Positions 18,991 to 38,347 of a DNA stretch of 64,000 nt are shown piece by piece (the first letter of the stretch is position 1; every line of letters begins with the position of its first letter). Where the stretch lies: contig JAGQTY010000003.1 of the NCBI GenBank assembly GCA_020438795.1, positions 103,913 to 167,912 on the forward strand, given 5' to 3'. This DNA comes from Actinomycetota bacterium. Lineage in GTDB: Bacteria > Actinomycetota > Actinomycetes > S36-B12 > GCA-2699445. The position numbers and the translations under genes were made by a program. The notes below the pieces were generated by a model. It did no database searches. It was not told the origin of the DNA and saw nothing but the letters and a program-made list of their open reading frames with translations.

Positions 18991-19073
18991 CTCATTCTCG
19001 CTCAGACTACCCCAGAACTGCGGTCACTCACCTGGCGTTGCACCCACCCGGAGCTGACCCGGAGCCAGTCCCT

Positions 19074-19769
19074 TCAGCGTCCCCTGAACGTCACCGACGC
19101 GACCCGGCCGCGGCCTTCGCTCGTCTCAGCCACCACCATGATCTTGATACGGGAGCGCCGGGGACCGAAGGTGGCCTTGAGAGCGGGGGACACGAAGGTC
19201 TGCCAATTGACCGTGTTGCCCGTGCTCAGGTTCTTCATCTTGGCCTTGTAGGTCACGTATTGCTCGCCCACGTTGGCCGGGGGACGCCAGCGGATCTGGG
19301 CGGTCTTCGCCTTGATCTTCTTGGCCTTGAGGCCGCGAACCTTGCTGGGCTTGGTCTTGCGAATCAGGCTCTCGGTGTAATAGGCCGAACCCTCACCGAA
19401 GGGCGTCACGGCCGAAACCGTGAAGTAGTAGTAGTGCCCGGGCACCAGAGCACCGGGGACCTGGAACGAGTTGGTACCCAACGCGACCTCGCCGATGACG
19501 GCGCCGTTGCTGGCCTTGATCCGGTAGCCGATCACGGCAGACTCCCGCCAGTTCACGGGGTCGGTCCAGGTCAGCAAGGCTCCGGTACCGTTCAGCGCGA
19601 TCCGCAGATCACGCACCCCCATCGGGTACTCGTACTCCGCCTGGCTCTCAACAGTCTCATCCTCCGCTGCGGCGCCGGCGACTGCCGGGCCGCTCAGCGC
19701 CCCCAGTGTGAGTGCGAGGCCCAGCCCAAGGGTGGAGGTCCGTGCTGGGAGTCTGACGCGCTTGGACAT
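19074..19769 (-). CDS. Secreted protein with two fibronectin type III-like domains
   Basis: Start MSKRVRLP and signal peptide ...LSGPAVAGAAA. Contains LRIALNGTGALLTWTDP...YYYFTVSAVTPFGEG and LKAKKIKAKTAQIRWRPP...IKIMVVAETSEG. Confidence 0.7.
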   Translation of the reverse strand: MSKRVRLPARTSTLGLGLALTLGALSGPAVAGAAAEDETVESQAEYEYPMGVRDLRIALNGTGALLTWTDPVNWRESAVIGYRIKASNGAVIGEVALGTNSFQVPGALVPGHYYYFTVSAVTPFGEGSAYYTESLIRKTKPSKVRGLKAKKIKAKTAQIRWRPPANVGEQYVTYKAKMKNLSTGNTVNWQTFVSPALKATFGPRRSRIKIMVVAETSEGRGRVASVTFRGR

Positions 19770-19985
19770 GCTGATGTGCTCCGTTCCTGCCATGCGAGCT
19801 GTCCGCCAGCTTCAACGGCGGCTTTCCTGGCCGCTCGCTCCGCGGCGGTGTCAGCTTCAAACGTTAACACGGTATTGACACCCAGACCTCGTCGCGGGAT
19901 GGTGAGATAGAACACGAACCGCTGAAGTCGCTGCCGCTCAAGCGCAAGAGGGCGGCGAACGTGTCACGGCACCAACGTGCAGGTG

Positions 19986-22630: not shown

Positions 22631-22770
22631 TCGGCCATGCTGACTCAGAAACAGGTTTCATTGCCTGTCAGCAAGAGTCACTCACCGTAATGGATGCACC
22701 GCCTCAAGCCCGGTACTGAGGGGTGATTGCTGACCAGCTCCGCTCGCCCCACGGATACGTCCCCAGCCGG

Positions 22771-23145
22771 TCAGGTGCTCTGGTCCGGCAGCATGGCCGC
22801 CAGTTCGTCCCGCAGCTCGCGGCACTGCAGCGCGACCGCCGCGCGGGCCTGCGGATCGTGGTCGGGGCTGCCCAGCAGCGCCTCGGCACGCCCCGCGATC
22901 ACCGAGCCCTGCATGTGGCCGAAGGTGCCCAGCACGCCGTGGAGCTTGTGTGCCATCATCAGCCCATCCTCGGCCGGCTCCCCCGGACCGGCCTGCAGCG
23001 CAAGCTCCACTACCTGCAAGCGTTCCACCAGGGCGGGCAACCGCTCCTGCCACAACGGCACCAGCAGTTCCGGCACGGACCAGCCCGCCGTGCCGCCACG
23101 ACCCGCCTCAGACCCGGGCGTGCCCCGCTCAGTCTCCTCCGCCAC
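22771..23145 (-). CDS. Stand-alone histidine phosphotransfer (Hpt) domain protein
   Basis: MMAHKLHGVLGTFGH matches the Hpt AHxLKGxxxxxG phospho-His motif. The ~124-aa protein looks helical. The GTG start lies 7 nt after the GT2 stop. Confidence 0.7.
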   Translation of the reverse strand: MAEETERGTPGSEAGRGGTAGWSVPELLVPLWQERLPALVERLQVVELALQAGPGEPAEDGLMMAHKLHGVLGTFGHMQGSVIAGRAEALLGSPDHDPQARAAVALQCRELRDELAAMLPDQST

Positions 23146-23151
23146 CGCTGT

Positions 23152-24609
23152 CTAGCTCCCCCCGCCGGCCGTCGTCGGCCCAGCTGACTTCGACTTCGCG
23201 CTGAGGCCAGTCCTGGTCATGGTGCCCCAGGAGGACTCCCGTCCCAGGACGCCGCTCACCACACCCCTGATCCGCCACCAGGCATGGATCTGACGGAATC
23301 CGACGTTCTCCAGGATGGAGGCCGCCACGAGCAGCAGCAGATTCCTGCTGCCCCGGTAGGTCTCCGAGGTCACGTCGTCGATCACCACCGAGGCCAGCGA
23401 CACCAGAATCCCGTAGCCGATCGCCACGAGGAAGAACAGGATGGCGAACGGGATGTTGATCGCGCCGAAGATCAGGCCCAGTATCACCGCGACAAGACCC
23501 AGAAGCTCCAGGAAGGGTCCGAGCACCTCGAACAGCAGGAAGTACGGGAGCACCACCATTCCCACTCGGCCGTAGCGCGGATTGAACATCATTCTGCGGT
23601 GCTTGATCAGCAACTCCGTCAGCCCCTGGGACCAGCGACGGCGCTGCCGTCCCAGCACCTTGAAGGTCTCGGGCACCTCGGTCCAGTTCACGGTGTCCGG
23701 CACCAGCATCATCCGGTAGGGACGCTTCTCGTTGCGCATCCGGTGATGGATAGTGGCGACCAGTTCAGCGTCCTCGCCCATACAGTCCAGATCGAACCCG
23801 CCGGACTCGATCACGATGTCACGGCGGAACAAGCCGAACGCGCCCGAGATGATCAGCAGGCCGTTGATGGCGGTCCAGCCGACCCGGCCCAGCAGGAAGG
23901 CACGCAGATACTCCACGACCTGGATGCGCGGCAGCCACTTGTCGGGCATCCCGGTGGCGATCAGCTCGCCCCGGTCAATCTCGCAGCCGTTGGCCACCCG
24001 AATGACACCGCCGGTGGCAACCACGTGCTCGGGGTCGTTCACGAACGGCTGCGCCACGCGCAGCAGGCCATCGCGATCCATGACGCAGTCGGCGTCCACG
24101 ATGCTGACCAGTTCGTGCCGGGCGATGTTGATGCCGACGTTGGATGCGTCTGCTCGCCGTCCGGCGTTCTCCTTGCGGACCACGACCAGGTTCTCACCGC
24201 CGCGGGGAACGTGGACCGACTTCACCTGCCCAATCGTGGGCACGTAGCTCTCGACCACCACAGGAACCTCGCGCAGGTCGAACTCCTCGGCCAGCCGCGC
24301 GAACGTCTCGTCCTTGGAGCCGTCCTCGACCACGACCACCTCGAAGGTCGGATACTCGAGTTCGAGCATCGAACGCACCGAGTCGACGATCCCCGCCTCC
24401 TCGTTGTAGGCGGCCACCACCAGAGAGATCCCCGGCCAGAGCGGGCTCGTGGACGATTCCTGGTAACCCCGCAGCGGGGCGCGCCGGTATTCACTGGGGA
24501 CCTCGAAGGCGCTGATGATCACGAAGACCAGGTAGGAACTGTTGATCGCCAGGAAGTAGAACAGCACGATGATGTTGAACCAGAGCAGGATCTCGTCGAC
24601 GACACTCAC
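23152..24609 (-). CDS. Processive family-2 membrane glycosyltransferase (PgaC/IcaA/NodC/BcsA-like polysaccharide synthase)
   Basis: N-terminal TM helix, VVVEDGSKDET, IVDADCV (DxD), GEDAEL, QRRRWSQG (Q(R/Q)xRW), and 3-4 C-terminal TM helices. The GTG start overlaps the upstream stop (GTGA at 24606-24609). Confidence 0.9.
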   Translation of the reverse strand: MSVVDEILLWFNIIVLFYFLAINSSYLVFVIISAFEVPSEYRRAPLRGYQESSTSPLWPGISLVVAAYNEEAGIVDSVRSMLELEYPTFEVVVVEDGSKDETFARLAEEFDLREVPVVVESYVPTIGQVKSVHVPRGGENLVVVRKENAGRRADASNVGINIARHELVSIVDADCVMDRDGLLRVAQPFVNDPEHVVATGGVIRVANGCEIDRGELIATGMPDKWLPRIQVVEYLRAFLLGRVGWTAINGLLIISGAFGLFRRDIVIESGGFDLDCMGEDAELVATIHHRMRNEKRPYRMMLVPDTVNWTEVPETFKVLGRQRRRWSQGLTELLIKHRRMMFNPRYGRVGMVVLPYFLLFEVLGPFLELLGLVAVILGLIFGAINIPFAILFFLVAIGYGILVSLASVVIDDVTSETYRGSRNLLLLVAASILENVGFRQIHAWWRIRGVVSGVLGRESSWGTMTRTGLSAKSKSAGPTTAGGGS

Positions 24610-25691
24610 GACAGCGACTCCCCGCCGGAGTCCGGGCCACGCTGTGACGGTATGCGGGCCAGCGCCTCTCTCGCGTACGCCTCAGCACTGCTGCCTGGTG
24701 GCAGATCTCTGAGCGTGGCTCGGCCTGCGGGGCCGGCTGCTGCCAGGGATTCCGCGGTGGCCCGGCACACACTCGGGCTCGGATCGGACAGTTCCTGCCT
24801 CAGATACTCCAGCACCTGGGAGTCATCCAGGCTGGCCAACGCCCGCACCGCAGCAGCTCGCACCATCGGGCCCTCCGCCAGGCACATGCGAAGGGGGGCT
24901 CGGACGTCCTGGCCTCCCACGCGACCGAGTGCTCGAATCAGCTGGACCTTGGTCCAGGGGTCATTCTCCTTGCTCAGCGCCGCCACCAGCGCGTCCCTGG
25001 CGTCGAACAGATTGAGCAGACCGATGACCTGGGCCGCCACTCGCCTGGTGATCGCGTCGCGATCCTGCAGGGCGGCTGCGAGAGCCAGCTCGCCCTCGGG
25101 GCCGATGGCGAGCAGCGCCGTCGCCACGACGACCGGAGAGTTGCCGTTGCGGCGGTGCAGCGATGCCAGGAGGGTGGGCGCCGCCGCCGCATCCTCCAGC
25201 CGGCCGACGGCACGCACGGCAGCCTGGCGCACATCAGCGTCGGGATCGGTGATGAGCGCGCGGATCCTGGCCGCTGCTTCTTCGACGCGCATCGAGCCCA
25301 GCAATTCACATGCGATCGCCCGAGCGAAGGGTCGACGGGAGCGGAGCCTCTCCTGCCCCCACTCGGGGAACCGGGAACGCACCAAGTACTCACGCAGGTT
25401 GTCCCGTCCCTCGCCGGTCACCGTGTTGATGATGCGGCAGGCGCTCAGCACGATGCTCCGGGCGACGCGTCGGTCAGAGGGGAGCCTCAACGGCTCCACC
25501 TCCTCGGGACCAAGTGCCATCGCCGTCAGCATGTGCTTGCGGGCCTGCTCCACCTGTGGGGCGGCGGCACGCTCACGGCGCTCATCGAGCAGCCGATAGC
25601 CAAGGGTGTAGAGGATCGCCAGAATGCTCAGCGAGAACAGGCCGATCGCGACCCAGAAGAGGATCTCGATCGGGACCGATATCGGACTCAT
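24606..25691 (-). CDS. Membrane-anchored HEAT-repeat protein
   Basis: Start MSPISVPIEILFWVAIGLFSLSILAILY (one TM helix). Then at least 5 HEAT/PBS-lyase-like repeats: DPDADVRQAAVRAVGRL, DRDAITRRVAAQVIGLL, DPWTKVQLIRALGRVG, GPMVRAAAVRALASL, DPSPSVCRATAESLAAAG. Confidence 0.75.
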   Translation of the reverse strand: MSPISVPIEILFWVAIGLFSLSILAILYTLGYRLLDERRERAAAPQVEQARKHMLTAMALGPEEVEPLRLPSDRRVARSIVLSACRIINTVTGEGRDNLREYLVRSRFPEWGQERLRSRRPFARAIACELLGSMRVEEAAARIRALITDPDADVRQAAVRAVGRLEDAAAAPTLLASLHRRNGNSPVVVATALLAIGPEGELALAAALQDRDAITRRVAAQVIGLLNLFDARDALVAALSKENDPWTKVQLIRALGRVGGQDVRAPLRMCLAEGPMVRAAAVRALASLDDSQVLEYLRQELSDPSPSVCRATAESLAAAGPAGRATLRDLPPGSSAEAYAREALARIPSQRGPDSGGESLS

Positions 25692-25704
25692 GGCGGACCC
25701 GGGG

Positions 25705-26073
25705 TCAGACTCGTCCGATGTAGCGCCGCAACCGCGACTGCAGTTCCACGAGGCTGAACGGCTTGACGATGTAGTCATCTGCGCCGACCTCGAAACCCCT
25801 GTCGACATCGTGCTCCTGACCACGCGCGGTGAGCAGCACGATCGGCACCTCCGCGAGATCGGCATCAGCGCGCAGTTGCCGGCAGACGTCGATCCCGTTG
25901 AGCCTCGGCATCATGATGTCTAGGAGCACAAGGTCGGGCTTGAGCTCGCGGGCGCGCGCGAGCCCGGTCTCCCCATCCCCGGCACTGTGGACTGTGTGGC
26001 CGGAGACACCCAGGCGCAGCGTGACGATGTCCCGGATGTTCTCGTCGTCATCGATCACCAGTACGTCTGCCAT
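25705..26073 (-). CDS. Single-domain response regulator (REC only)
   Basis: VLVIDDDE, LVLLDIMMPRLNG, VLLTARG and YIVKPF. All phospho-acceptor pocket residues are present. Confidence 0.9.
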   Translation of the reverse strand: MADVLVIDDDENIRDIVTLRLGVSGHTVHSAGDGETGLARARELKPDLVLLDIMMPRLNGIDVCRQLRADADLAEVPIVLLTARGQEHDVDRGFEVGADDYIVKPFSLVELQSRLRRYIGRV

Positions 26074-26167
26074 TGCGATTGCTCCAGATATCGCAGTTCA
26101 GCAAGACCCTACTGACCTCGCACAGCTGAGTCGCGTTGAGCGCTGCCCGGGTGCGCCCGCAGGTGAC

Positions 26168-26192
26168 GCGGGTCGCCACAGCAGCGACCCGC
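26168..26192. promoter_or_regulatory. Perfect 9-bp inverted repeat GCGGGTCGC-n7-GCGACCCGC just upstream of a TATAGT -10-like hexamer, in the divergent REC/REC intergenic region
   Basis: Read directly from the sequence. TATAGT lies at 26196-26201 and ATG 26237 lies downstream. Confidence 0.3.
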
Positions 26193-26236
26193 GCCCTATA
26201 GTCGGGAGCACACCGTCTCACACCACTTGGGCGCCC

Positions 26237-26620
26237 ATGAAAGCTCGGATTCTTCTCGTCGACGACGAGGACGACATCAGAACCATCGCCCAGATGTGCC
26301 TTCAGGATCTGGGCGGATTCGAGACGGTCGTCGCCTCCTCCGGACCCGAGGCACTCGAGGAGGTGGGCAGGCGGTGCCCCGATGCGATCCTGCTGGACAT
26401 GATGATGCCCGGGATGGACGGTATGGAGACCCTCGCCCGGCTACGCGAGATCACCGGATGCGAGGACCTGCCTATCATCTTCATGACGGCACGCTCACAG
26501 CGACGCGAGATCGAAGAGTATCTGAGCACGGGCGCGGTCGGGGTCATCACCAAACCCTTTGATCCCATGGCACTGGCGGGGCAGGTATCGGACCTCCTGG
26601 GACTGCCGGGCGAGGCCTGA
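26237..26620 (+). CDS. Single-domain response regulator (REC only)
   Basis: ILLVDDEDD, AILLDMMMPGMDG, IIFMTAR, VITKPF. The stop overlaps the start of the hybrid kinase (TGATG at 26618-26622). Confidence 0.9.
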   Translation: MKARILLVDDEDDIRTIAQMCLQDLGGFETVVASSGPEALEEVGRRCPDAILLDMMMPGMDGMETLARLREITGCEDLPIIFMTARSQRREIEEYLSTGAVGVITKPFDPMALAGQVSDLLGLPGEA

Positions 26621-29600
26621 TGGAGCCGGCACCCATCCCGGATGACGACGCTGAGCGGTTACAGGCGCTCTACGAACTCGAGGTACTCGACACCGACCCC
26701 GATCCGGAACTCGACCGGATCACTCAGGTGGCGGCCGAGTACTTCGGCGTCCCGATCTCCCTCATCACCCTGGTCGACGAGCACCGGCAGTGGTTCAAGT
26801 CCCGGACCGGTTGGGACGCCTCGGAGGGCCCGCGAGAGACTTCGTTCTGCGGACACGTGATTACGGGCGAAGAGCCCATGATCGTTCCGGACTCCACGCG
26901 CGACCCCCGCTTCTTCGACAATCCGGACGTGATCGGGGAACCCAAGATCCGCTTCTACGCGGGGACACCACTGCACGGGCCGGACCGGCACCGTCTGGGC
27001 ACCCTATGCATCGTGGATCTGAAACCCCGAGAGCTCGATCCGGCCCAGCAGCGGATGCTCCGGGTCCTTGCGGAGGCCGCGGAACGGGCTCTGGTCAACA
27101 CCTGGCAACGGCGGCGCTATGCTCAGGCGCTCACGGCCGAGACGCGACTGGCGGCCGGACTGCGGACCACTGCCGCAGGCTGGCTCATCTGGGATGAGGA
27201 TGCCACGATTCTGGACGTGAATCCTGGGCTGCAACGGATTCTGGGCTATCGGTCGGAGGAACTGGTCGGAACGAGCGCGAAACAGCTGTTCCCGGGGGAT
27301 GGCCTCAGCACTCTCTGCCGCGATGCGGCAGACAACGCGCCACGAGCGCCACACCGACTGGCCGCGGCCGCGCGTGACGGTAGCACCGTTCCCGTGAGCG
27401 CAGTGGTGAGCGAACTGGAGATCCGCGAGCAGCGACAATACGTCGGGATCTTCACCGATCTGACAGAGCTGGTCCAGGCCGAGGACGAGCTGTCACAGTT
27501 CTTCAAGCTGTCATTCGACCTGCTGTGCATCGCCAATAAGTACGGCCGCTTCGTCCGCCTCAACCCAGCGTTCGAGGAGGTGCTGGGATTCCCCACCCGC
27601 GAACTCCTCCAGCGTCCGATCCTCGACTGGGTGCTGCCGGAGGACCGTGAAGCCACGGCCAGAGAACTGCAGGCAGTGGCCGGTGGGGCTGAGACGCACA
27701 ACTTCGAGAACCGCTGGCGCCGCAGCGACGGCGAGGTGCGGACCCTGGTCTGGTCGGCACGCGCAGACCCGAACTCAGAGCTGATCTATGCCGCGGCGCG
27801 AGACATCACCGCCGAACGCCGCCAGTACCTGGAACTGCGACGCCTCGACGAACAGATCCGGGCATCCCCGCTGCTGATTGCGACCATGGACACGGACCTG
27901 GCGCTCACCAGCGTAAACGCAACCTGGGCATTACTGCGGGGTCCCGGCGCCGCGGGCGATCTGACGCTGGACGACCTCTACACCATGGAGGCCGCAAGAA
28001 GGATGCGCCAGGAGATCGCTCCCGAGGTGCTGGCATCCGGCTCCTGGAGCGGTGAGGTGCAGATCCGGGCCGCCCATGACCGGACCCGGACCATCAACCA
28101 GACTGTGCTGCGGCAAGTCGATGCCAGTGGACGGGCGGGCCTGTCGGTAGTGGCCCACGACGTCTCGGAGTACAAGGAACTGGACCGAATGAAGGACGAG
28201 TTCATCTCCACGGTCTCCCACGAACTGCGTACCCCTCTCACCTCGATCCGTGGCTCGCTCGGACTGGTGGCGGCAGGTGCCGCCGGCCAACTGCCGGAGA
28301 AGGCCGCCGGACTGATCGGCATCGCGAACCAGAACACCGAACGGCTCATCCGGCTCATCAACGATGTGCTGGATCTGGAGAAGATCCAGTCCGGGACGGC
28401 CGCCCTGAACCTCCACGACGAACGGATGGACCGCATCGTCTCGGAATCCCTGAGTTCGGTGGAGGGCATGGCCTCGGACAACGACGTCCAGCTCCGCTCC
28501 AGGCGCGGCGAGGATCTCCCCGAGGTCTCGGTGGATCGGGACCGGATCGTACAGGTGCTCACCAATCTGCTCTCCAACGCGATCAAGTTCTCCGAACCGG
28601 GGCAGGCCGTCGAGATTGGCAGCGCCGTCGTCGACGATGAGATACAGGTGACAGTCAAGGACTTCGGCGTCGGCATCCCGGCTGATCACCTCGAAGCCAT
28701 CTTCGGACGCTTCCAGCAGGTCGACTCCACCACCAGTCGTGCGAAGGGCGGCACCGGGCTCGGCCTGGCCATCAGCCGCGAGATCGCCCATATGCATGGC
28801 GGCACCCTCGAGGTCACGAGTGCACCGGGAGCCGGCAGCACGTTCACCCTGCGACTGCCCCTGCCCGCCGATATGGCAGCCCACCAGCCTCAGCCGAACG
28901 AGCAGGAGCAGGTGGCGCTCGCCCCCGGCCCGGACATCCTGGTCGTCGAGGACGACGACGACCTGGCCCATGTCATGATCAGTCTGCTCGAAACAGCCGG
29001 CTACTCCGCGCTCAGCGTGGACTCACTGCAATCGGCCCGGGAACGGGTGTTCTCTGTGATCCCCGACCTCGTGCTGCTGGACCTGCAGCTGCCGGACGGA
29101 CACGGGCTGGATCTCGTCCACGAGATGAAGGACGACCCGGACCTGGCAAGGGTGCCGATCATGGTCGTGACCGGTACGCGGACCAACCGGCCCGCGGTGC
29201 CCACCATCGTGGACTGGATCACCAAACCCATCACCAACGACGGGTTGCTGGCGAGTGTCGAACGGGCCCTCCTGGAGGACGAGGGCGCAACGGCGCTGAT
29301 CGTGGAGGATGACGAACAGGCCCGGACCATCATGGCCACCGTTCTGGAAGACCGCGGTCTGACGGTGATCCAGTCGGACTCGGGCGAGGCAGCCCTGCGG
29401 CTGCTCGGGTCCATCCAGCCCGACATCATCGTGCTGGACGTCGGCCTGCCCAACGTGGACGGCTTCGAGTTCATGGCGAGGCTGGCGGACACACACAGCG
29501 CCGAGACACCGGTGATCGTGTTCACAGGCAGAGAGCTCACCGAGTCCGACAGACAACGACTGACCCGCGGAATGACCACGTTCCTCACCAAGACGAAGGC

Positions 29601-29670
29601 CACCAATGAGCAGTTCGCCCACACGGTGCTGCAGGCCCTGGAACACCACCGGGCCCGACACTGCCGTTGA
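26620..29670 (+). CDS. Cytoplasmic hybrid histidine kinase: GAF - ~3 PAS - HisKA - HATPase_c - REC - REC
   Basis: GAF (RLQALYELEVLDT...RFYAGTPL...LGTLCIVD), PAS-like blocks (ILDVNPGLQRILGY..., FVRLNPAFEEVLGF...), H-box FISTVSHELRTPLTSI, N/G boxes (LLSNAIKFS, DFGVGIP, GGTGLGLAIS) and two receivers (LVLLDLQLPDGHG; IIVLDVGLPNVDG). No TM segment. Confidence 0.9.
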   Translation: MEPAPIPDDDAERLQALYELEVLDTDPDPELDRITQVAAEYFGVPISLITLVDEHRQWFKSRTGWDASEGPRETSFCGHVITGEEPMIVPDSTRDPRFFDNPDVIGEPKIRFYAGTPLHGPDRHRLGTLCIVDLKPRELDPAQQRMLRVLAEAAERALVNTWQRRRYAQALTAETRLAAGLRTTAAGWLIWDEDATILDVNPGLQRILGYRSEELVGTSAKQLFPGDGLSTLCRDAADNAPRAPHRLAAAARDGSTVPVSAVVSELEIREQRQYVGIFTDLTELVQAEDELSQFFKLSFDLLCIANKYGRFVRLNPAFEEVLGFPTRELLQRPILDWVLPEDREATARELQAVAGGAETHNFENRWRRSDGEVRTLVWSARADPNSELIYAAARDITAERRQYLELRRLDEQIRASPLLIATMDTDLALTSVNATWALLRGPGAAGDLTLDDLYTMEAARRMRQEIAPEVLASGSWSGEVQIRAAHDRTRTINQTVLRQVDASGRAGLSVVAHDVSEYKELDRMKDEFISTVSHELRTPLTSIRGSLGLVAAGAAGQLPEKAAGLIGIANQNTERLIRLINDVLDLEKIQSGTAALNLHDERMDRIVSESLSSVEGMASDNDVQLRSRRGEDLPEVSVDRDRIVQVLTNLLSNAIKFSEPGQAVEIGSAVVDDEIQVTVKDFGVGIPADHLEAIFGRFQQVDSTTSRAKGGTGLGLAISREIAHMHGGTLEVTSAPGAGSTFTLRLPLPADMAAHQPQPNEQEQVALAPGPDILVVEDDDDLAHVMISLLETAGYSALSVDSLQSARERVFSVIPDLVLLDLQLPDGHGLDLVHEMKDDPDLARVPIMVVTGTRTNRPAVPTIVDWITKPITNDGLLASVERALLEDEGATALIVEDDEQARTIMATVLEDRGLTVIQSDSGEAALRLLGSIQPDIIVLDVGLPNVDGFEFMARLADTHSAETPVIVFTGRELTESDRQRLTRGMTTFLTKTKATNEQFAHTVLQALEHHRARHCR

Positions 29671-29759: not shown

Positions 29760-30698
29760 CTACTGGCCGTCGATGACCAGGCGGTCCCGCCCGGTCTCCT
29801 TCGCACGATAAAGGGCATCGTCAGCCGCCTTGGCGATGTCGCGGAACTCCGAGATCGCTCCCCGTGCGTAGCCGCCACTGGCCTTCACATGCAACGACAA
29901 CTGCGGCCCCACCACCATAGGGGTCCTCCCAATGGCCTCACGAACCGCACGAGCCACCTCCTCGTCCTGGGGTGGCGTGGGGTTCTCGATGATGAGCATG
30001 AACTCCTCACCGCCCCAGCGCACCACTCGACGCCCACTGGCCGCGTTGTCGAGGCGCTTGGCGGCGATCTGCAGCACCACATCGCCCGCGGCATGACCGT
30101 ACTCGTCGTTGACGTGCTTGAAGTGGTCGATGTCCAGCAGCAATGCCCCCAGCTGAGAACCCTCCGGAGCCGTGGTTGTCAGATTCGCCATATGGGTGTC
30201 GAGCCAACGCCGATTCTTCAGGCCCGTGAGGGCATCCACCGTGCTCTGCTGCTGCAACTGGTTCATCCGGTGCTGCAGTTCCCTGTCCTGGGCGGCCAGC
30301 CGGGTCAAGGTCTGCACCCTGGCCACGAGTTCCTGCGGGTGGCAGGGCTTGCGGATGTAGTCCCGCGCCCCCTCCTCCAACCCTCTGGCAGCGGCGTCGC
30401 CGTCGACACGAGCGGTGAGGAAGATGACCGGGATGTCGGCCAGTTGCGGACGCTGCTTCAGCGCACGGATCGTTGCCAGACCGTCCATTCTGGGCATGTC
30501 GACATCGAGCAGGAACAGGTCGGGCGGATCCTGCTGGGCCACAGCCAAGGCCTCACTGCCGTCCGCGGCCTCCATCGTCCGGAACCCGGCTCCGGCCAAT
30601 ATCCGCACCATGATGGCCCTGACCGCCCGGCTGTCGTCGGCGATCAGCACGGTGAGAGCACCACTGTCCTGTTCACGCCGGTGCTGGGGCTCGGCCAT
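29760..30698 (-). CDS. REC-GGDEF response regulator diguanylate cyclase (WspR/PleD-like)
   Basis: REC (LIADDSRAV, LFLLDVDMPRMDG, VIFLTAR, YIRKPC), a coiled linker, and GGDEF (LLLDIDHFKHVNDEYGH, RWGGEEF). There is no RxxD at the canonical I-site position (ASGR instead). ATGA overlap with the upstream cheX-like gene. Confidence 0.9.
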   Translation of the reverse strand: MAEPQHRREQDSGALTVLIADDSRAVRAIMVRILAGAGFRTMEAADGSEALAVAQQDPPDLFLLDVDMPRMDGLATIRALKQRPQLADIPVIFLTARVDGDAAARGLEEGARDYIRKPCHPQELVARVQTLTRLAAQDRELQHRMNQLQQQSTVDALTGLKNRRWLDTHMANLTTTAPEGSQLGALLLDIDHFKHVNDEYGHAAGDVVLQIAAKRLDNAASGRRVVRWGGEEFMLIIENPTPPQDEEVARAVREAIGRTPMVVGPQLSLHVKASGGYARGAISEFRDIAKAADDALYRAKETGRDRLVIDGQ

Positions 30699-31129
30699 CA
30701 GCTATCCACCTGCATTTCGTCGAGGTCGAGGTCGATGATGAAGAAGGACCCACCAGCCAGGAACCCGGCGCTCAGATCCGCAGCAGGCTCCGTGCCGGCG
30801 GGGACAGCCTCGGGCAGGCCGATCAGGCAGGGCTGCGGGAGCACCCCGGCCAGGTTCCCTGCCACCATGTTGGTCAGCTCGCCCAGAGTGTCAAGCAGAT
30901 CTGCGTCTTCGAGCGGCGCTTCCCCCAGCAGGGCAGCGGCGAACACCTCGGCACTCGCAGTGGGACAGTGCAGTGTCACCCGGCCGCGGCTGGCCCCTGT
31001 GAAAGCAATGCTGCTTGCCAGATCGGGGGCAGGGCCCGCCTGCGGATCGGTCGGCACCGCCTCCATGTCGAACATCGTCGACCAGACCGAGAAGACGACT
31101 TCATTCAGCAGCGCTTCATAGCCGGTCAT
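30698..31129 (-). CDS. cheX: CheX/CheC-family chemotaxis phosphatase-like protein
   Basis: 143 aa. LGELTNMVAGNLAG matches the CheC/CheX E-x2-N active-site helix. ATGA overlaps on both sides. Confidence 0.7.
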   Translation of the reverse strand: MTGYEALLNEVVFSVWSTMFDMEAVPTDPQAGPAPDLASSIAFTGASRGRVTLHCPTASAEVFAAALLGEAPLEDADLLDTLGELTNMVAGNLAGVLPQPCLIGLPEAVPAGTEPAADLSAGFLAGGSFFIIDLDLDEMQVDS

Positions 31130-31935
31130 GAGTCCGCACCATCCTGTCGGCGATAGGCGACGACCCTACCCACGGTAGAGGATTCGAGGGAGGGTATCGA
31201 AGTCAGTGTGGATTCGGCGCTGCCGAGGATCAAGTAGCCGCCGGGGTTCAGATGCCTGGCGACCCGCTGCAGCACCCGCTCGCGCGTCTCGGCCCCGAAG
31301 TAGATGAGCACATTGCGGAGCAGGATCAGGTCGAAGGACGCGCCGGGGCTTTCCGAGACCAGATTGAGCCGCTGGAACCGGACCAGGTCCCTGATCTGAG
31401 GCTTCACCACCCACGCAAGACCGTTACGGTCGAAGTACTGCACCAGGTAGCGAGCGGGCAGGCCGCGGTTCACCTCCAGCTGGGAGTACTGGGCGGCCTG
31501 CGCCACAGCCAATGCCCCCGTGGCGAGGTCGGTGCCCAGCACGCTGATCGGGCGCGCTGCGAACCTCGAGGTAGCGAGCAGCGCCAGGCTGTAGGCCTCC
31601 TGGCCGGTGGCCGTCGCCGCTGACCAGATCCGCGGAACGGCTGTTCTTTCCATCAGGTCCGGAAACACCTGTGTCTCCAGGGCACGCCAGAGCGCCGGAT
31701 CGCGGAAGAACGAGGTCTCCTTGGTGAGCATCTCCGAAACGACGCGTATGCGCGCTTCCCGGTCTCCAAGACGACACTGCGCAATCAGCTCGTCGATGCT
31801 TTCGAGGTCACGCTCCTTTGCTACCGGGAGCAGTCGGGCGTTCACCAGATACTCTTTACCCTCGGGCAGTTCGACCCCGGCTTCCTGGAGCAGGATCGCC
31901 TGCACATAGGCGAAGTCGTCGGGCCTGACCGTCAT
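31126..31935 (-). CDS. cheR: Chemotaxis protein methyltransferase CheR
   Basis: ETSFFRD, IWSAATATGQEAYSLA, DLILLRNVLIYF. Start at ATG 31935 (ATGA overlap with the cheB stop). Confidence 0.9.
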   Translation of the reverse strand: MTVRPDDFAYVQAILLQEAGVELPEGKEYLVNARLLPVAKERDLESIDELIAQCRLGDREARIRVVSEMLTKETSFFRDPALWRALETQVFPDLMERTAVPRIWSAATATGQEAYSLALLATSRFAARPISVLGTDLATGALAVAQAAQYSQLEVNRGLPARYLVQYFDRNGLAWVVKPQIRDLVRFQRLNLVSESPGASFDLILLRNVLIYFGAETRERVLQRVARHLNPGGYLILGSAESTLTSIPSLESSTVGRVVAYRRQDGADS

Positions 31936-32975
31936 ACCGTGGTCCGTCCCTGGCCACGCGCTGCGACCTCGGCTGCCAGTCCCTGCGGCGACAATGAGGC
32001 ATACTCCAGACCCGCGCTGCGCACCGCGGCGGGCATCGAGTCCACCACGCACGAAGCGGCGTCCTGCGCCAGCACGGTCCCCCCGCGCTCCACCACTGCA
32101 GCCGAACCGATGAGCCCGTCGTGCCCCAGTCCAGTCATCACGATGGCGAGCAGCCCCCTGCCGTAGACCTCGGCGGCAGTCCGGAACAGGTGATCGGCCG
32201 CGGGACGCGCATGGGCCTCCCGCGGGCCGTCGCTGAGGCGAGCGAGCACCGAGTGCTCCGGACCGGTCACGACCCCCAGGTGCCGACCGCCCGGCGCGAG
32301 GTACACGTGACCACGAAGTATCCGGGTGTCTTCAGCCGCGACCTGGACCGGCAGCCTGCAACGACTGGCCAGTCGTTCAGCCAGCGCCGCCGGGAAGGGC
32401 TCCGGCATGTGCTGCACGATCAGCATGGGCGTGGACAGCGGACCTGGAACACTGCTCAGGAAAGCTTCGAGCGTTTCAGGCCCCCCGGTGGACACACCCA
32501 CCACCACGGCAGAGATGCGGCTCCCGTGTGAGTCGGGAATGGGCTTGGGTCGCGGTGGCGCTGCCGACTTCGGAGCCGGTGGCCGGGAGACCTTGAGCAG
32601 CAGCTGCACCAACTGCCCCACCCAATCCTCGTTCGATGTCAGGCTCGAAGGTTTCGGCACGAAGCCGACCGCTCCCTCGGCCAGCGCAGCGACAGTCTCC
32701 CTGGGACCTTCACCGACATGGGAACTGAGCACCACGACGGGGATCTGTTCACCCCGACGCTGCAACTCCTTGAGAAGGCCCCTGCCGTCCAGGACAGGCA
32801 TGTGCAGGTCCAGTACCACGGCGTCCGGCCTCTGTGCGAGGATCCGCCGCAGACCGACCTCACCGTTCTCCGCCAGCCCGGCCAACTCCAGGTCCCGGTG
32901 ATCACGGATCACCTGTGTGATGGCACGGCGAGCGACAGCAGAGTCGTCGACCACCAGGATGCGCCTCGGCGACAT
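31932..32975 (-). CDS. cheB: Chemotaxis response regulator protein-glutamate methylesterase CheB
   Basis: REC (ILVVDDSAVAR, VVLDLHMPVLDG) plus the methylesterase catalytic triad context (GVSTGGPETL, VQHMP, MTGLGHDG). Confidence 0.9.
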   Translation of the reverse strand: MSPRRILVVDDSAVARRAITQVIRDHRDLELAGLAENGEVGLRRILAQRPDAVVLDLHMPVLDGRGLLKELQRRGEQIPVVVLSSHVGEGPRETVAALAEGAVGFVPKPSSLTSNEDWVGQLVQLLLKVSRPPAPKSAAPPRPKPIPDSHGSRISAVVVGVSTGGPETLEAFLSSVPGPLSTPMLIVQHMPEPFPAALAERLASRCRLPVQVAAEDTRILRGHVYLAPGGRHLGVVTGPEHSVLARLSDGPREAHARPAADHLFRTAAEVYGRGLLAIVMTGLGHDGLIGSAAVVERGGTVLAQDAASCVVDSMPAAVRSAGLEYASLSPQGLAAEVAARGQGRTTV

Positions 32976-32976
32976 A

Positions 32977-33357
32977 TCAGACCTCGAAACCGAGCAGCTC
33001 GAGCTTCTGTGCGAGCACCTCCTGCGTGAACGGCTTCATGAGATACTCATCGGCACCCAGGGCAAGCGCTCGGCCGATCTGGTCGATCTCGGTCTCGGTG
33101 GTGACCATCATGACGACGCCTCGGTAGTCGTAGGGCTTCGCCCGGACCGCCTCGACGAAGTCGACACCGCTCATGCCCGGCATGTGCCAATCGACCAGCA
33201 CCATGTCGGGCACACCGCCGGCGGTGGCGTCGGCAAGCAACTCCAGCGCTGCCAGTCCGGAATCGGCTTCGGAGATCGTCTGACAGCCCATCTGTTTCAG
33301 CATGCTCGCCAGGATTCTGCGCATCGTCCGAGAATCGTCGATCAGGAGGACATGCAT
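32977..33357 (-). CDS. cheY: Chemotaxis response regulator CheY
   Basis: Start MHVLLIDDSRTMRR. Also LVDWHMPGMSG, MMVTTE, LMKPF. 126 aa. Confidence 0.9.
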   Translation of the reverse strand: MHVLLIDDSRTMRRILASMLKQMGCQTISEADSGLAALELLADATAGGVPDMVLVDWHMPGMSGVDFVEAVRAKPYDYRGVVMMVTTETEIDQIGRALALGADEYLMKPFTQEVLAQKLELLGFEV

Positions 33358-33370
33358 GCGGCATCCAGTC

Positions 33371-33820
33371 TCAGTCTTTGGCGGAGAGCATCGCTTCAAT
33401 GTCTACCAACACCAGCATCTCCGTGTCTCCCCGGAGTACGGCAACAGCATGACGTCTGATGCCCTCATCGATGGTGGCCGGGACAGGCTGCCATCGGTCT
33501 GGCGGGCACTCCACGACTCCAACAGCGCTGTCCACATGCACCCCGCCCCAGCGCTGATCGCGTTCGAGCAGCACGCAGACCGGGGTACCGCCGGGACGCG
33601 GTGCGAGTCCGAGACGTTCACGGGCATCGGTGATAGCCAGGACATGGCCGCGCAGATTCGCGATGCCGACCACTGCTTGCGGGGCCAGCGGCACCTCGGT
33701 GAAGGGCAGTCCACGCACTGTCTCGCGGACATGCTCCACGGAGAAGGCGATGAGCACGTCGTCCACCCGGAAGGCTGCCACGACCGCGGGCAGCTTGGCC
33801 TTCAGCTCGGCGGGGGTCAT
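33371..33820 (-). CDS. cheW: Chemotaxis coupling protein CheW
   Basis: 149 aa. FRVDDVLIAFSVEHVRE...VVGIANLRGHVLAITD is typical of the CheW domain. ATGA overlap with the cheA stop. Confidence 0.9.
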   Translation of the reverse strand: MTPAELKAKLPAVVAAFRVDDVLIAFSVEHVRETVRGLPFTEVPLAPQAVVGIANLRGHVLAITDARERLGLAPRPGGTPVCVLLERDQRWGGVHVDSAVGVVECPPDRWQPVPATIDEGIRRHAVAVLRGDTEMLVLVDIEAMLSAKD

Positions 33821-35904
33821 GTCGGCCCTCCGGCCGCTCCGTAGGCACCCAGGTCGACCAGGTCGGTGACCCTGCCGTCGATGACCGAGGTACCACTGAC
33901 GCGGGAATCCGTCACAGCGGACCAGGATGCCGGACCGGACCGTATCTCGATGATCCGCGCGACGGCCAGTCCCACCAGCTCATCACCCCGGCGGCAGATC
34001 ACCACATTCGCCATCTCCGGCGTTCCCAGCGCCCCAGCCGACGACTGCGTGAGCACCCCGGCGTGATCAACCAGCCTGACGATCCGGTCGTCATACTGGA
34101 ACACCAGTTGCTCCCCCGCACGCTCGATGGCTGACGTCGGCACCTGAACCAGCCGTTCCACCTCGTCCAGGAGCACCGCGTTGCGGCGATCGTCGAGACC
34201 GGCGACGAGCAGGACCGGCGCTCCCAGATCCGGAGCCACCGGCGTCGTCCTGCCACGGTTGGCCGCCTCGACCGCGCTCACATCGATGCCACGGCCGAGC
34301 GCCCCGATGTCGAGGATGAGTGCGGCTCTTCCGTCCGGTAGCACGGTCGCACCCCCGTACGGGGAGATCCCCCGGATCACATTCGGCAACGGCTTCACGA
34401 CCGCCTCGAAGTTGTCCTCCACCTGATCCACGATGAAACCGAACCGACGCCCCCCGCTTCGGAGGAGCACCAGCTCCAGCACGGCCCCCCCAGCGAGTGG
34501 GGGTGCCTTGGGCGCGATGACCGACGCCGGGACCAGCGGGGTGAGTTCGTCCTCACGTCGCAGGAACAGTGCATCCTCGACGTTGAGCAGAGCCTCGGCC
34601 TGTTCTGCCGGTTCGAGCCTGACCATCGTCTCGACGTCGATCTGCGGGAGTGCATAGCTGATCCCTGCGACGCGGACCACGATCACGTTCACGATCGCTA
34701 ACGTGAGCGGTAGATCGAGAATGACCGTCGTACCCTGTCCGGGGGTGGACCTGAGCTCGGCGGTGCCACCCACCTGTTCCGCGGCAGAGCGGACCACATC
34801 CATCCCGACGCCACGTCCAGAGGTCTTGGTGATGGCGCTGGCTGTGGACAGTCCAGGAATGAACACCAGATCCAGGATCTCGGCGGGAGTCCGCCCCGCC
34901 ATCTCCGCCTTGGTGCGGTGGCCGGCTGCGATCACCTTGTCGGCCAGCGCTTCCGGATCGATCCCCCGGCCATCGTCGGAGACCGTCAGCCGGACCCGGC
35001 TGCCGGACACGGTCACCGAGATGTCGATGGTGCCGAAATCGGTCTTACCAGCCGCGAGCCGGTCGTTCGGCAGCTCGATGCCATGGTCGACCGCATTGCG
35101 CAGCACGTGGATCAGCGGATCCAGGATCAGCTCATTGATGGCCTTGTCGACTCCGACATCCTTGTCCGAGATGGTCAGGTCTACCCGCTTGTTCTGTTCC
35201 TGTGCCAGGTCGCGCACAATGCGTGGCAGCTTGTTGAGCACGGTGGCGATCGGCTGCATCCGGGCGAACATGACGATGTCCTGCAGTTGTTTGCTCGCCT
35301 GCCGCAGCCGGCGATACGGCTCGGCCATCCGCTCGTTGCCGACGATCTCCTCGGCCAGCTGGGCACGAGCGAATGCGATGTCGGACACGAGGTCCTGGAG
35401 CTGGTCGAGCACCTTGACATCCACGCGCACGGAGGCCTCACGAGCGTGGGCCGGTTCCGCACGAGCTGCCGCCGCATCCCGCTCAGCCACGGGTGCCTCG
35501 GGCTGCTGCGGCAGCGGGCCCTCGCTCAGATGCGTTCGCAGCAGTGGCGCCACCAGGTTGGCGTCGACATGCTCGTCGGAGCCTTCCTCGGCGATCAGGT
35601 TCAGTGCCTGCTCGACGACATCGGCGAGCCTCAGCAGGCTCGTGGTCAGGTCGGCGGTGACCCGTAGTTCGCCACGACGCACCGCGCCGAGCACGTCCTC
35701 CGCGGCATGCGTGATCTCCTCCAGGTGATCGAAACCGAGGAATCCGCAGGTCCCCTTCATGGTGTGAACGGCACGGAAGATCCGGTCGAGCAGTTCCTGA
35801 TCGCCGGCGTTGGCCTCGAGCTGCACCAGGTCCAGGTTGAGCTGCTCCAGACCCTCCCTGGATTCCTCCAGAAAGATCTCGACCATCTCCGGGTCGGCGT
35901 TCAC
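33817..35904 (-). CDS. cheA: Chemotaxis histidine kinase CheA (no fused receiver)
   Basis: P1 Hpt (FRAVHTMKGTCGFLGF), dimerisation and HATPase (HVLRNAVDHGIE, DDGRGID, GRGVGMDVV), and CheW-like P5 region(s). Start chosen at GTG 35904, 7 nt after the MCP stop; an alternative ATG lies at 35886. Confidence 0.9.
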   Translation of the reverse strand: MNADPEMVEIFLEESREGLEQLNLDLVQLEANAGDQELLDRIFRAVHTMKGTCGFLGFDHLEEITHAAEDVLGAVRRGELRVTADLTTSLLRLADVVEQALNLIAEEGSDEHVDANLVAPLLRTHLSEGPLPQQPEAPVAERDAAAARAEPAHAREASVRVDVKVLDQLQDLVSDIAFARAQLAEEIVGNERMAEPYRRLRQASKQLQDIVMFARMQPIATVLNKLPRIVRDLAQEQNKRVDLTISDKDVGVDKAINELILDPLIHVLRNAVDHGIELPNDRLAAGKTDFGTIDISVTVSGSRVRLTVSDDGRGIDPEALADKVIAAGHRTKAEMAGRTPAEILDLVFIPGLSTASAITKTSGRGVGMDVVRSAAEQVGGTAELRSTPGQGTTVILDLPLTLAIVNVIVVRVAGISYALPQIDVETMVRLEPAEQAEALLNVEDALFLRREDELTPLVPASVIAPKAPPLAGGAVLELVLLRSGGRRFGFIVDQVEDNFEAVVKPLPNVIRGISPYGGATVLPDGRAALILDIGALGRGIDVSAVEAANRGRTTPVAPDLGAPVLLVAGLDDRRNAVLLDEVERLVQVPTSAIERAGEQLVFQYDDRIVRLVDHAGVLTQSSAGALGTPEMANVVICRRGDELVGLAVARIIEIRSGPASWSAVTDSRVSGTSVIDGRVTDLVDLGAYGAAGGPT

Positions 35905-35911
35905 GGGCTGA

Positions 35912-37540
35912 TCACCTTCCGGGGCCCTGATCCGGGGCGCGGGTGTCCAGGGTGAAGCGCACAACCAGGGAGTTGAGCGTGGTCGCCAGTTCGGCAAGGG
36001 CCTGCGACGCACTGAGTGTGTCCGCGGCGCTGTCCGTGGTTCCCTGGGCTGCCTCTGCCACCCCGGCGATGTTGCGGGCGATGTCGGCGGAAGCGGTCGC
36101 TGTGCCGTTGAGCGTCATGCCGATCTCACGCGTGGTGGCTGCCTGCTCCTCGACGGAGGTCGCGATGCTGGACTGATAGCTGTTGATCTTGTCGATGATC
36201 TCGGCGATGTCCCCGATCGCAGAAACCGCCTGTTCGGTGTCGGACTGGATCCTGCCGATCCTCTCGTCGATCTCCTCGCTGGCCTTCACGGTGCGGCTGG
36301 CCAGGTCCTTAACCTCGTTGGCGACCACTGTGAAGCCCTTGCCGGCTTCCCCGGCCCGGGCCGCTTCGATGGTGGCGTTCAGAGCCAGCAGGTTGGTCTG
36401 CTCGGCGATCGAAGTGATGAGCGTGGTCACCTCTCCGATCTCGCTGGACGCCTGGCCGAGGGACTGCACGGTGGCCCGCGTCGACGCCGAGACCGATACC
36501 GCCTCCTGGCCGACGACCGAGGCGTCGGTGGCGTTCTTGGAGATTTCGCGGATACTCACATTCAGTTCCTCGGCGCCGCTGGCCACCGACTGGAGGTTCT
36601 GGGAGACCTCCTCCGCCCCGGCAGAGACCCCGGTCGCCTGAGTCGTGGTCTGCTCCGCGGCGCTGCCCAACGTAGTGCTGATCGCAGAGAGTTCCTCCGC
36701 GCTGGACGCCAATGACTGGGAGCTCTCTGCGATCTGTACGACCGCCATGTTGGTACTGGCCGTGGCGGTGTTGAGGGCAGTGGCGACCTCGGCCAGCTCG
36801 TCCCGGGTGTCATCCTCGACCCTGACCCGGAGGTCACCCTCAGCCACCTTGCCGAGTGCGAGCTGGATGCGTCGCAGCGGCACCGCGATCGAGCGGCCAA
36901 GGACGGCGCCCAGCACGATCGCCGCCAGGATGGCCAGGATGCTGACCACTACGATCACGATCCTTGAGGTGGTTGATGCCGCAGCGGCGTCATCGGCGAT
37001 CTGGCGCGTGGTGTTCTCGAGGTCCGCAGCGATGCTGGACAACTCATCGACCTGGGCACTGAGCTGGTCGCGCACCGCCCCTTCGATCTGCGCCCGACCC
37101 TTCGCCCGCTCGGCTTCGCTGCCCTGGAGCAGTTCGCTCGCAGTGGCGATCAGGCTCTGCAGCTGGGTGAAGTCATTCTGCACCTGAGACAGTCGCGACT
37201 TGTTCTGCGAGCTCAGTTCCTCGCCCAGGATGGTCGAGATATCAGTCTTGAAGGTGTTGAGGAACTGGTTCATCTCGGCAAGGCTGGGCGATGTATCGCC
37301 GTTCTCCTGCGCCGCGAGCAACGCGCCCTGAGTATGGGACTCCACCTGCGTCAAATCGTACCGGAGGTCCAGGACCGTCCCGGTGGTGGTGATGGCTCGG
37401 GCCAGCCGCTCACGAGCGTCGGAGCCGTTGACCATCTGCACGAAGGCCACGATGGCGATGATGGCCAGCAGCACCACCACGATGGCGAACGAGATGGTGA
37501 TGCGCGTACCGATCCGCAGGCGTCTGGCCAGCTCAGTCAT
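35912..37540 (-). CDS. Methyl-accepting chemotaxis protein (2 TM, ~160-aa extracytoplasmic helical sensor, HAMP, signalling domain)
   Basis: Highly conserved hairpin tip [37 protein letters not shown] helices at [21 protein letters not shown] and [25 protein letters not shown] motif ([17 protein letters not shown]). Confidence 0.9.
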
Positions 37541-37687
37541 GGCAACAAGATAGTGGGGCGGCAAGGAACGTGGCCGAGTTGTCGGGCCCCGCGCCAGACA
37601 TAGGGGTCAATACCGGACACGCCGCGGCCACCTCGGCATGGGCAGAGGAATCGGAATGGTAACGGGCATGGGCATCGAGCGGGAGCA

Positions 37688-38320: not shown

Positions 38321-38347
38321 CGTGGCCAACTCCAACTGCTGACGGGG

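Follow-up and report, generated by a model that had tools for sequence, protein, structure and literature searches.

In a 64,000-nucleotide stretch of DNA from an Actinomycetota bacterium (contig JAGQTY010000003.1; hereafter the window), four tightly packed genes encode a single-domain response regulator (a receiver, REC1), a HEAT-repeat protein, a family 2 glycosyltransferase (GT2) and a histidine phosphotransfer (Hpt) protein. We report that the middle two genes form a previously undescribed and very widespread module, a polysaccharide synthase paired with a transmembrane (TM)-anchored HEAT protein, which is often linked to genes of a phosphorelay. The HEAT gene lies directly upstream of the GT2 gene at every informative locus, across ten bacterial phyla and the Halobacteria. 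Synthase-dependent exopolysaccharide (EPS) systems, such as those for cellulose, poly-N-acetylglucosamine (PNAG), alginate, Pel and Nfr, are central to biofilms, and the textbook cases are gated post-translationally by cyclic di-GMP (c-di-GMP). To our knowledge, no member of the HEAT-GT2 module has been studied so far. We found no description in the literature of a HEAT repeat or a YaiO protein combined with a glycosyltransferase or synthase, and a systematic survey of synthase-dependent EPS operons makes no mention of HEAT (PMC7112194).

Do the two genes travel together? An earlier note, made from the window's sequence alone, had taken the HEAT protein for a candidate regulatory or scaffold subunit of the synthase or a novel c-di-GMP receptor, and had named a lack of co-conservation as a refuting outcome; the pair is in fact conserved elsewhere. 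A genome scan with a GT2 alignment returned 35 loci with full-length orthologues (32-50% identity), from Actinomycetota, Bacillota, Acidobacteriota, Gemmatimonadota, Myxococcota, Ignavibacteria, Bacteroidota and Alpha-, Beta- and Gammaproteobacteria, together with 45 loci encoding more distant GT2s. Partners were detected by all-against-all clustering of open reading frames (ORFs) and then with a hidden Markov model (HMM) of the partner. A homologous HEAT protein of ~350 residues is encoded immediately upstream of GT2 in all 33 orthologous loci that have upstream DNA, and the partner HMM recovered it at 1 of the 45 distant-GT2 loci. It stands likewise directly upstream in four further close relatives with gene calls and in eight plasmid or megaplasmid records (Haloarcula, Halosolutus, Mesorhizobium ciceri, Erythrobacter, Deinococcus, Emticicia, Bacteroides finegoldii and Planococcus), which with the window itself makes 46 of 46 loci. 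All 30 HEAT/GT2 junctions compared fall between -16 and +34 nt, and in 16 of them a 4-nt start/stop overlap is available. Pairwise divergence in one protein tracks that in the other (Mantel r = 0.70; 0 of 2000 permutations), with the HEAT partner evolving about twice as fast as GT2 (mean pairwise identity 18% versus 39%). These data show that HEAT and GT2 are strictly paired, with coupled translation, and we propose that the HEAT protein is an obligate co-subunit of the synthase. ORF clustering found no conserved third cytoplasmic partner across phyla.

In the window the unit reads REC-HEAT-GT2-Hpt on the minus strand, with spacers of 13, -4 and 6 nt: the HEAT ATG lies 13 nt past the REC1 TGA, the GT2 start GTG sits in a GTGA that overlaps the HEAT stop by 4 nt, and the Hpt GTG follows the GT2 TAG after six bases, starting at the seventh. 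The earlier note had described this packing down to the gap, the overlap and the Hpt start; the ORF listing and the minus-strand sequence agree with it, and Pfam backs each gene assignment (Table 1). It had also remarked on the absence of PilZ, PgaD, deacetylase, BcsB and export genes, and with Pfam and NCBIfam the flanking genes show no domain of the PilZ, PgaD, deacetylase, BcsB or porin type. At least six independent metagenome contigs carry the identical four-gene unit, and an identical GT2 protein is present in NCBI, named as that of an uncultured Actinobacteria bacterium metagenome-assembled genome (MAG). A promoter and terminator scan, uninformative in sequence of 65% GC, found no terminator-like site on the minus strand within the unit. 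Its one sigma-70-like match, weak evidence in itself, lies on the plus strand in the intergenic region between REC1 and a divergently transcribed second receiver gene, REC2, a region that presumably holds the promoters of both units. The REC2 stop overlaps the start of a hybrid histidine kinase (HK) gene.

What kind of enzyme is the GT2? It carries D96/D100, D172xD174, E279-D280 (GED) and Q322RRRW326, so that the D, DxD, (G)ED and QRRRW signature read in the earlier note is present, and D96, D100, D172, D174, E279, D280, Q322, R323, R325 and W326 are invariant in 30 orthologues across phyla, as is a C-terminal W461...R466 motif. The AlphaFold2 (AF2) model (pLDDT 77, pTM 0.80) consists of a long N-terminal helix (residues 2-41), a GT-A domain, an interface helix bearing the QRRRW motif and three long C-terminal helices (344-455); about 4-5 TM helices are predicted, one of them N-terminal and about three C-terminal. 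Foldseek matched the model best to PcManGT, the Chlorella-virus hyaluronan synthase (CvHAS), Xenopus XlHAS1, BcsA and yeast Chs1, all processive synthases, with probability 1.0 and TMq of 0.48-0.58. The polyprenyl-phosphate transferases ArnC and GtrB reached only about 0.30-0.34. The fold therefore favours hyaluronan, cellulose and chitin synthases and PcManGT over the lipid-linked transferases that the earlier note had kept in view. With its GT-A motifs and a TM-embedded catalytic domain of similar fold, the protein models as a membrane-integrated processive synthase.

Within that superfamily it stands apart from the named families. The best NCBIfam model is PgaC_IcaA (TIGR03937; 9e-36), which matches in two stretches within residues 140-375 only and scores 123.6 bits against an equivalog cut-off of 422.3; a PgaC/IcaA equivalog is thereby ruled out, and no NCBIfam equivalog covers either GT2 or the HEAT protein. 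Among characterised proteins it comes closest to E. coli PgaC (24% identity, E 2e-25). NfrB, also considered for that place, was ruled out, showing no significant sequence similarity. The combination of GED, QRRRW and W-G-x-x-T/x-R presumably resembles the signature of chitin synthases, NodC and hyaluronan synthases more than the TED of cellulose synthases, and we take it as a lead only.

The HEAT protein begins with one TM helix followed by basic residues. Its AF2 model (pLDDT 91.6) shows a 53-residue N-terminal helix and then about nine helical hairpins, more than the at least five repeats that the earlier note had counted in what it correctly described as a single-pass protein. The hairpins are tandem, ~31 residues long and matched by HEAT_2 and HEAT_PBS, which together with the solenoid of the model places them in the PBS type. 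Sequence matches in the PDB are alphaRep proteins, down to 3e-26, and Foldseek of the model returned generic protein-binding solenoids only (alphaRep, importin, PP2A-A), with no functional lead. An N-terminal TM helix and a basic stretch are present in every HEAT partner compared, and because the helix precedes the basic residues in all of them, the solenoid is predicted to be cytoplasmic.

How would such a complex receive a signal? The window offers a complete set of phosphorelay parts. The phospho-acceptor pocket of REC1 is intact (D9/D10, D52, T82, Y101 and K104, read from the sequence), the Hpt protein scores above the Pfam cut-off and carries an AHKLHG...G phospho-histidine motif that aligns with CheA-P1 and with fused Hpt domains, and the cytoplasmic hybrid kinase with two receivers encoded nearby is presumed to be the phosphodonor for Hpt. 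Similar arrangements recur elsewhere. In about 24 of the 46 loci a receiver, stand-alone or fused, is encoded either immediately ahead of HEAT or at a distance of one gene. The order is REC-HEAT-GT2-HK in Actinomycetospora, REC-HEAT-GT2 with a convergent HK in Dactylosporangium and response regulator (RR)-HEAT-GT2-GAF-HK in the archaeal Haloarcula; an upstream receiver is also found in Halosolutus, Erythrobacter, Emticicia and Mesorhizobium, and kinase genes are adjacent in many orthologous loci. A 73% identical relative (L087) has REC-HEAT-GT2-Hpt-REC-hybrid HK, all on one strand.

Hpt domains recur in Actinomycetota, Acidobacteriota, Bacillota and Alphaproteobacteria: a separate Hpt gene lies beside GT2 in Mesorhizobium, an Hpt-REC-REC fusion stands in front of each of two tandem module copies in one acidobacterial MAG (L014), and an Hpt-REC-GGDEF-REC fusion is encoded in Rossellomorea, Bacillus and Jeotgalibacillus (L017, L018 and L030). 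In the acidobacterial MAG the two copies of Hpt-REC-REC, HEAT and GT2 are arranged head to tail. An HMM built from eight Hpt seeds added nothing new on the remaining genome-scan loci (L007-L041), and on the later loci it matched only the annotated Mesorhizobium Hpt and, weakly, a large Erythrobacter PAS protein; it may have overlooked short, divergent Hpt genes. The link drawn in the earlier note between phosphorelay parts and the synthase unit thus recurs, receivers in about half of the loci and Hpt in four phyla. Phosphorelay parts are a recurrent feature of the module, neither a local accident nor universal, and since about half of the loci have no adjacent receiver, we regard REC as a frequent accessory and not as a universal part.

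Export genes and neighbouring enzymes bear on the product. A YaiO-family outer-membrane beta-barrel is inserted in the cluster of the diderms Mesorhizobium and Emticicia, and TPR proteins in that of Erythrobacter; by context, these genes support translocation of a polymer. In Halosolutus gelatinilyticus, a sugar-phosphate nucleotidyltransferase gene and glmS lie directly downstream of GT2, a hint of UDP-GlcNAc supply and of a secreted GlcNAc-type polymer. The position of PgaC as the closest characterised homologue and the Chitin_synth_2 match of GT2 hint at a product of the same type; for beta-1,6-linked GlcNAc in particular, the indirect hints are the Halosolutus neighbours and the GED, QRRRW and W..R motifs.

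From these observations we propose a synthase-dependent EPS system in which a HEAT-GT2 complex makes a glycan, likely of N-acetylhexosamine (HexNAc), at a rate set by a relay from hybrid kinase through Hpt to phosphorylated receiver (REC~P), a reading on which we find ourselves evenly divided. Its core would be a two-protein inner-membrane complex. GT2 would polymerise and translocate a beta-linked glycan, most probably rich in GlcNAc or other HexNAc; the TM helix of the HEAT protein would pack against the synthase, as PgaD and IcaD do against PgaC and IcaA, and its cytoplasmic solenoid would be placed beside the catalytic domain. The GAF-PAS hybrid kinase would autophosphorylate and pass the phosphoryl group via its own receiver to Hpt, which would phosphorylate REC1, the product of the gene just ahead of HEAT. 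REC~P may then switch the synthase on by docking on the HEAT solenoid or where HEAT and GT2 meet, while REC2 may serve as a competing sink. That HEAT touches GT2 and REC touches HEAT, which way the regulation runs and what the sugar is are our inferences; taken together, the arrangement suggests that production of an exopolysaccharide (slime) is switched on by phosphorylation.

A close parallel is PgaCD/IcaAD, encoded in the E. coli pgaABCD and staphylococcal icaADBC operons. The enzymes share D, DxD, (T/G)ED and QxxRW motifs and a small number of TM helices, and PgaC and IcaA depend on a small membrane partner encoded alongside them, through which they are regulated post-translationally, as we propose for the synthase here. 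However, PgaD and IcaD are small two-TM proteins of 100-140 residues encoded downstream, whereas here an upstream gene encodes the partner, a HEAT solenoid of 350 residues with a single TM helix; a PgaB/IcaB deacetylase is absent from the window; and the input seems to come from a phosphorelay, either instead of c-di-GMP or alongside it. NfrB-NfrA-YbcH of E. coli and BcsA-PilZ are likewise synthase-dependent, and in diderms a YaiO-type or TPR exporter accompanies GT2 as NfrA accompanies NfrB, but GT2 has no significant sequence similarity to NfrB and the module has neither an MshEN nor a PilZ domain.

Precedents for the proposed control come from three other systems. In the Dif-EpsW-EpsZ pathway of Myxococcus xanthus, EpsW, a single-domain response regulator fed from a chemosensory or kinase pathway, activates an EPS enzyme post-translationally by direct contact when phosphorylated (PMC12802240); there the target is a Wzx/Wzy-pathway phosphoglycosyl transferase and no HEAT adaptor takes part, whereas the enzyme here is a processive GT2. 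In Halobacterium, the HEAT_PBS protein OE2401F, with CheF, is genetically required downstream of the single-domain regulator CheY, coupling it to a membrane machine (PMC2666748), although OE2401F is a soluble protein that acts on the archaellum and we claim no orthology with the HEAT partner. In Methanobacteriaceae, one or two receivers are fused to a BcsA-like PF13641 glycosyltransferase, as in MTH_548 (PMC5847659), which argues that receivers can control such enzymes directly. MTH_548 joins receiver and enzyme in one chain where the module has three genes, it lacks a HEAT protein, and we liken it to the module by domain content.

Extending this argument, REC-HEAT-GT2 could be an unrecognised class of HexNAc-polysaccharide secretion system in Bacteria and Archaea, in which the HEAT protein replaces PgaD/IcaD and docks REC~P, so that a phosphorelay and not c-di-GMP gates the synthase directly, lineages of the Bacillales type having added a cyclase. 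We offer this wider claim tentatively, as a possibility somewhat short of an even chance. Archaea lack response regulators with GGDEF or EAL output domains (PMC5847659), yet haloarchaea keep RR-HEAT-GT2, and on that ground we argue that phosphorylation, and not c-di-GMP, was the ancestral input. Because of the fused Bacillales cyclases and a nearby WspR-like cyclase in the window, c-di-GMP stays a possible co-signal.

Several observations weigh against phosphorelay control of a HexNAc polymerase. Roughly half of the orthologous loci lack a receiver in the immediate neighbourhood, and only 7 yielded an Hpt. In 8 loci the module contains or adjoins a GGDEF or GGDEF-EAL gene, and in the window a REC-GGDEF gene 4 kb away closes a chemosensory operon; in some lineages at least, c-di-GMP could be the true effector. 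The sugar is deduced from motifs, distant homology and one gene neighbourhood, and the GH16 hydrolase and GlxA-like radical copper oxidase encoded after the module in Actinomycetospora cinnamomea could instead point to a glucan. No HEAT-GT2 or REC-HEAT fusion protein was seen in the partner searches. A single-sequence word search gave 33 hits, the cross-phylum profile search was swamped by generic HEAT-repeat proteins, and a representative search with the partner alignment gave 233,858 hits, the top 150 being mostly giant multi-repeat proteins; the missing fusions therefore neither support nor exclude an interaction.

Could c-di-GMP itself be the signal? We count it as the main rival to the phosphorelay, or as a further input beside it, and the GGDEF genes of 8 loci lend indirect support to the earlier note's idea of the HEAT protein as its receptor. 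It might act as an allosteric activator through the HEAT protein or the C-terminal tail of GT2, with the phosphorelay contributing indirectly, through REC-GGDEF cyclases such as that of the window or the fused Hpt-REC-GGDEF-REC proteins of Bacillales. Most known synthase-dependent systems (BcsA, PgaCD, NfrB, Pel and alginate) are gated in this way, and the annotation of NfrB counts in the same direction. In Rossellomorea and Bacillus (L017 and L018) the Hpt/REC-fused cyclases encoded directly upstream of the HEAT gene have a GGEEF motif and an RxxD I-site; the same GGEEF fusion in Jeotgalibacillus has no I-site match, and GGDEF or GGDEF-EAL genes are adjacent to the module in L012, L033, L034 and L037. 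The cyclase of the window, a possible c-di-GMP input that we treat as context only, has a GGEEF motif without an RxxD I-site. Yet neither the HEAT protein nor GT2 contains a PilZ, MshEN or degenerate GGDEF/EAL domain by Pfam or NCBIfam. Most loci, including those of cultured actinomycetes and haloarchaea, have a plain receiver and no GGDEF gene nearby; RR-HEAT-GT2 is kept in archaea despite their lack of GGDEF/EAL-output regulators (PMC5847659); and the 73% identical relative does not share the Che/GGDEF neighbourhood. We consider c-di-GMP unlikely to be the direct signal.

A constitutive HEAT-GT2 complex is also improbable in our judgement. REC1 and Hpt would then be intermediates or sinks of the hybrid-kinase relay, whose true output, transcription or a cyclase, would lie elsewhere, and their co-location would reflect co-expression. 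The loci without an adjacent receiver fit such an arrangement, as do the two single-domain receivers of the window, one of which could be a sink. What it does not explain is why the receiver is so consistently the gene before HEAT, from Archaea to Actinomycetota, or why in the fusions the C-terminal receiver still abuts the HEAT gene; the conserved set contains no DNA-binding response regulator, and single-domain regulators work through protein contacts (PMC12802240, PMC5847659). It is very doubtful that the HEAT protein receives no signal and serves as a localisation or assembly scaffold, placing the synthase at poles or septa or recruiting modification enzymes: HEAT and alphaRep-like solenoids are generic protein-binding scaffolds and the partner evolves fast, as adaptors often do, but the recurrent REC/Hpt linkage is left unexplained and no third cytoplasmic partner is conserved. 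A NodC-like oligosaccharide synthase or lipid-linked sugar transferase that exports no polymer is hardly credible, for although the TM helices are fewer than in BcsA and the TM-scores to solved synthases moderate, at about 0.5, QRRRW and the C-terminal W..R never vary in the orthologues compared, processive synthases match the structure best, diderm loci carry outer-membrane barrel and TPR export genes, and PgaC and IcaA have similarly few TM helices and work with a small partner.

Table 1. Positions of the synthase unit, its surroundings in the window and selected features of other loci (numbers with the prefix L denote loci of the comparison; domain matches are to Pfam).
Feature	Position	Strand	Length	Domains and remarks
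REC1	26073..25705	-	122 aa	Response_reg 2e-29
HEAT protein	25691..24606	-	361 aa	HEAT_2 2e-29, three stretches; HEAT_PBS also matched
GT2	24609..23152	-	485 aa	Glyco_tranf_2_3 5e-22; Glycos_transf_2 1e-17; Chitin_synth_2 1e-9
Hpt protein, stand-alone	23145..22771	-	124 aa	Hpt 2.4e-6, 28.1 bits (cut-off 24.6)
Divergent intergenic region, REC1/REC2	26074..26236	.	163 nt	Read from sequence
Sigma-70-like match	26173-26202	+		Within the intergenic region
REC2, single-domain response regulator	26237..26620	+	127 aa	Response_reg 4e-28
Hybrid HK, cytoplasmic	26620..29670	+	1016 aa	GAF-PAS-PAS-HisKA-HATPase-REC-REC
REC-GGDEF diguanylate cyclase	29760..30698	-		GGDEF 3e-35; Response_reg 2e-30
Chemosensory operon, Wsp-like	37564..29760	-		Ends with REC-GGDEF
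FG-GAP/pentapeptide-repeat protein	19986-22661	-	891 aa	Directly downstream of Hpt
fn3 protein and SGNH protein	17797-19793	-	239 aa; 397 aa	fn3 protein secreted; SGNH protein stand-alone
PspC-domain HK and LuxR-type RR	37688-39544	-		Directly beyond the chemosensory operon
Very long ORF	41700-46454	+	1584 aa
domA/domB accessory loci	L017:9311-12595, L018:9361-12621, L019:1585-6877, L032:4697-6832
domA/domB accessory loci	L093:1361-3814, L099:1802-3886, L013:11467-12684, L016:1501-2568
Nucleotidyltransferase and glmS, Halosolutus gelatinilyticus	L100:6594-9568			Directly downstream of GT2
GH16 and GlxA-like genes, Actinomycetospora cinnamomea	L088:8695-11332			After the module
Tandem module copies, acidobacterial MAG	L014:287-9386			Hpt-REC-REC, HEAT, GT2, twice

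Some loci carry further genes. Two modules that match no Pfam family, domA and domB, accompany HEAT-GT2 in Bacillota, Deinococcus, Melioribacter and Myxococcales. The first, of ~350 residues, occurs as a C-terminal fusion to GT2 in one Myxococcales MAG, and the second, of ~690 residues, shows weak GH2-like similarity (E 7e-4). In Deinococcus the copy carries the annotation of a TPR protein. The GH16 and GlxA arrangement of Actinomycetospora recalls the CslA-GlxA glycan system of Streptomyces.

In the window itself, the protein encoded directly downstream of Hpt combines FG-GAP/VCBS repeats, an Ig-like (HYDIN/ASH) domain, a Pro/Thr/Ser-rich linker and a long pentapeptide-repeat region, and is 799, 859 or 891 residues long depending on gene caller and contig. 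It is followed by genes for a secreted fn3 protein and a stand-alone SGNH protein, of a type usually fused to an AT3 acyltransferase, which could O-acetylate or de-acetylate a glycan. The fn3 and SGNH genes are confined to the window's own lineage, and all three proteins, considered as conserved export or modification partners, were ruled out, being missing from the 73% identical relative and all other loci. On the other side, 4 kb from the synthase unit and in a non-motility context, lies a complete Wsp-like chemosensory operon, MCP (4HB-HAMP)-CheA-CheW-CheY-CheB-CheR-CheX followed by the REC-GGDEF gene as its last; in a metagenome variant (L003), CheR is split into two ORFs. Directly beyond the operon is a LiaS/LiaR-like envelope-stress pair, and farther on a very long ORF of the plus strand.

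Why would the module matter? If our reading is correct, it would be a further EPS system, one whose co-subunit is of another type and whose control follows another logic, in which phosphorylation signals directly to the synthase complex. Its carriers range over soil actinomycetes, bacilli, clostridia, rhizobial symbiosis plasmids, gut Bacteroides, Deinococcus and haloarchaea, and include cultured and genetically tractable organisms (Mesorhizobium ciceri WSM1271, Paenibacillus, Rossellomorea, Actinomycetospora and Haloarcula). The same reading would also provide a function for one single-domain response regulator among the many orphans and for a bacterial HEAT-repeat protein.

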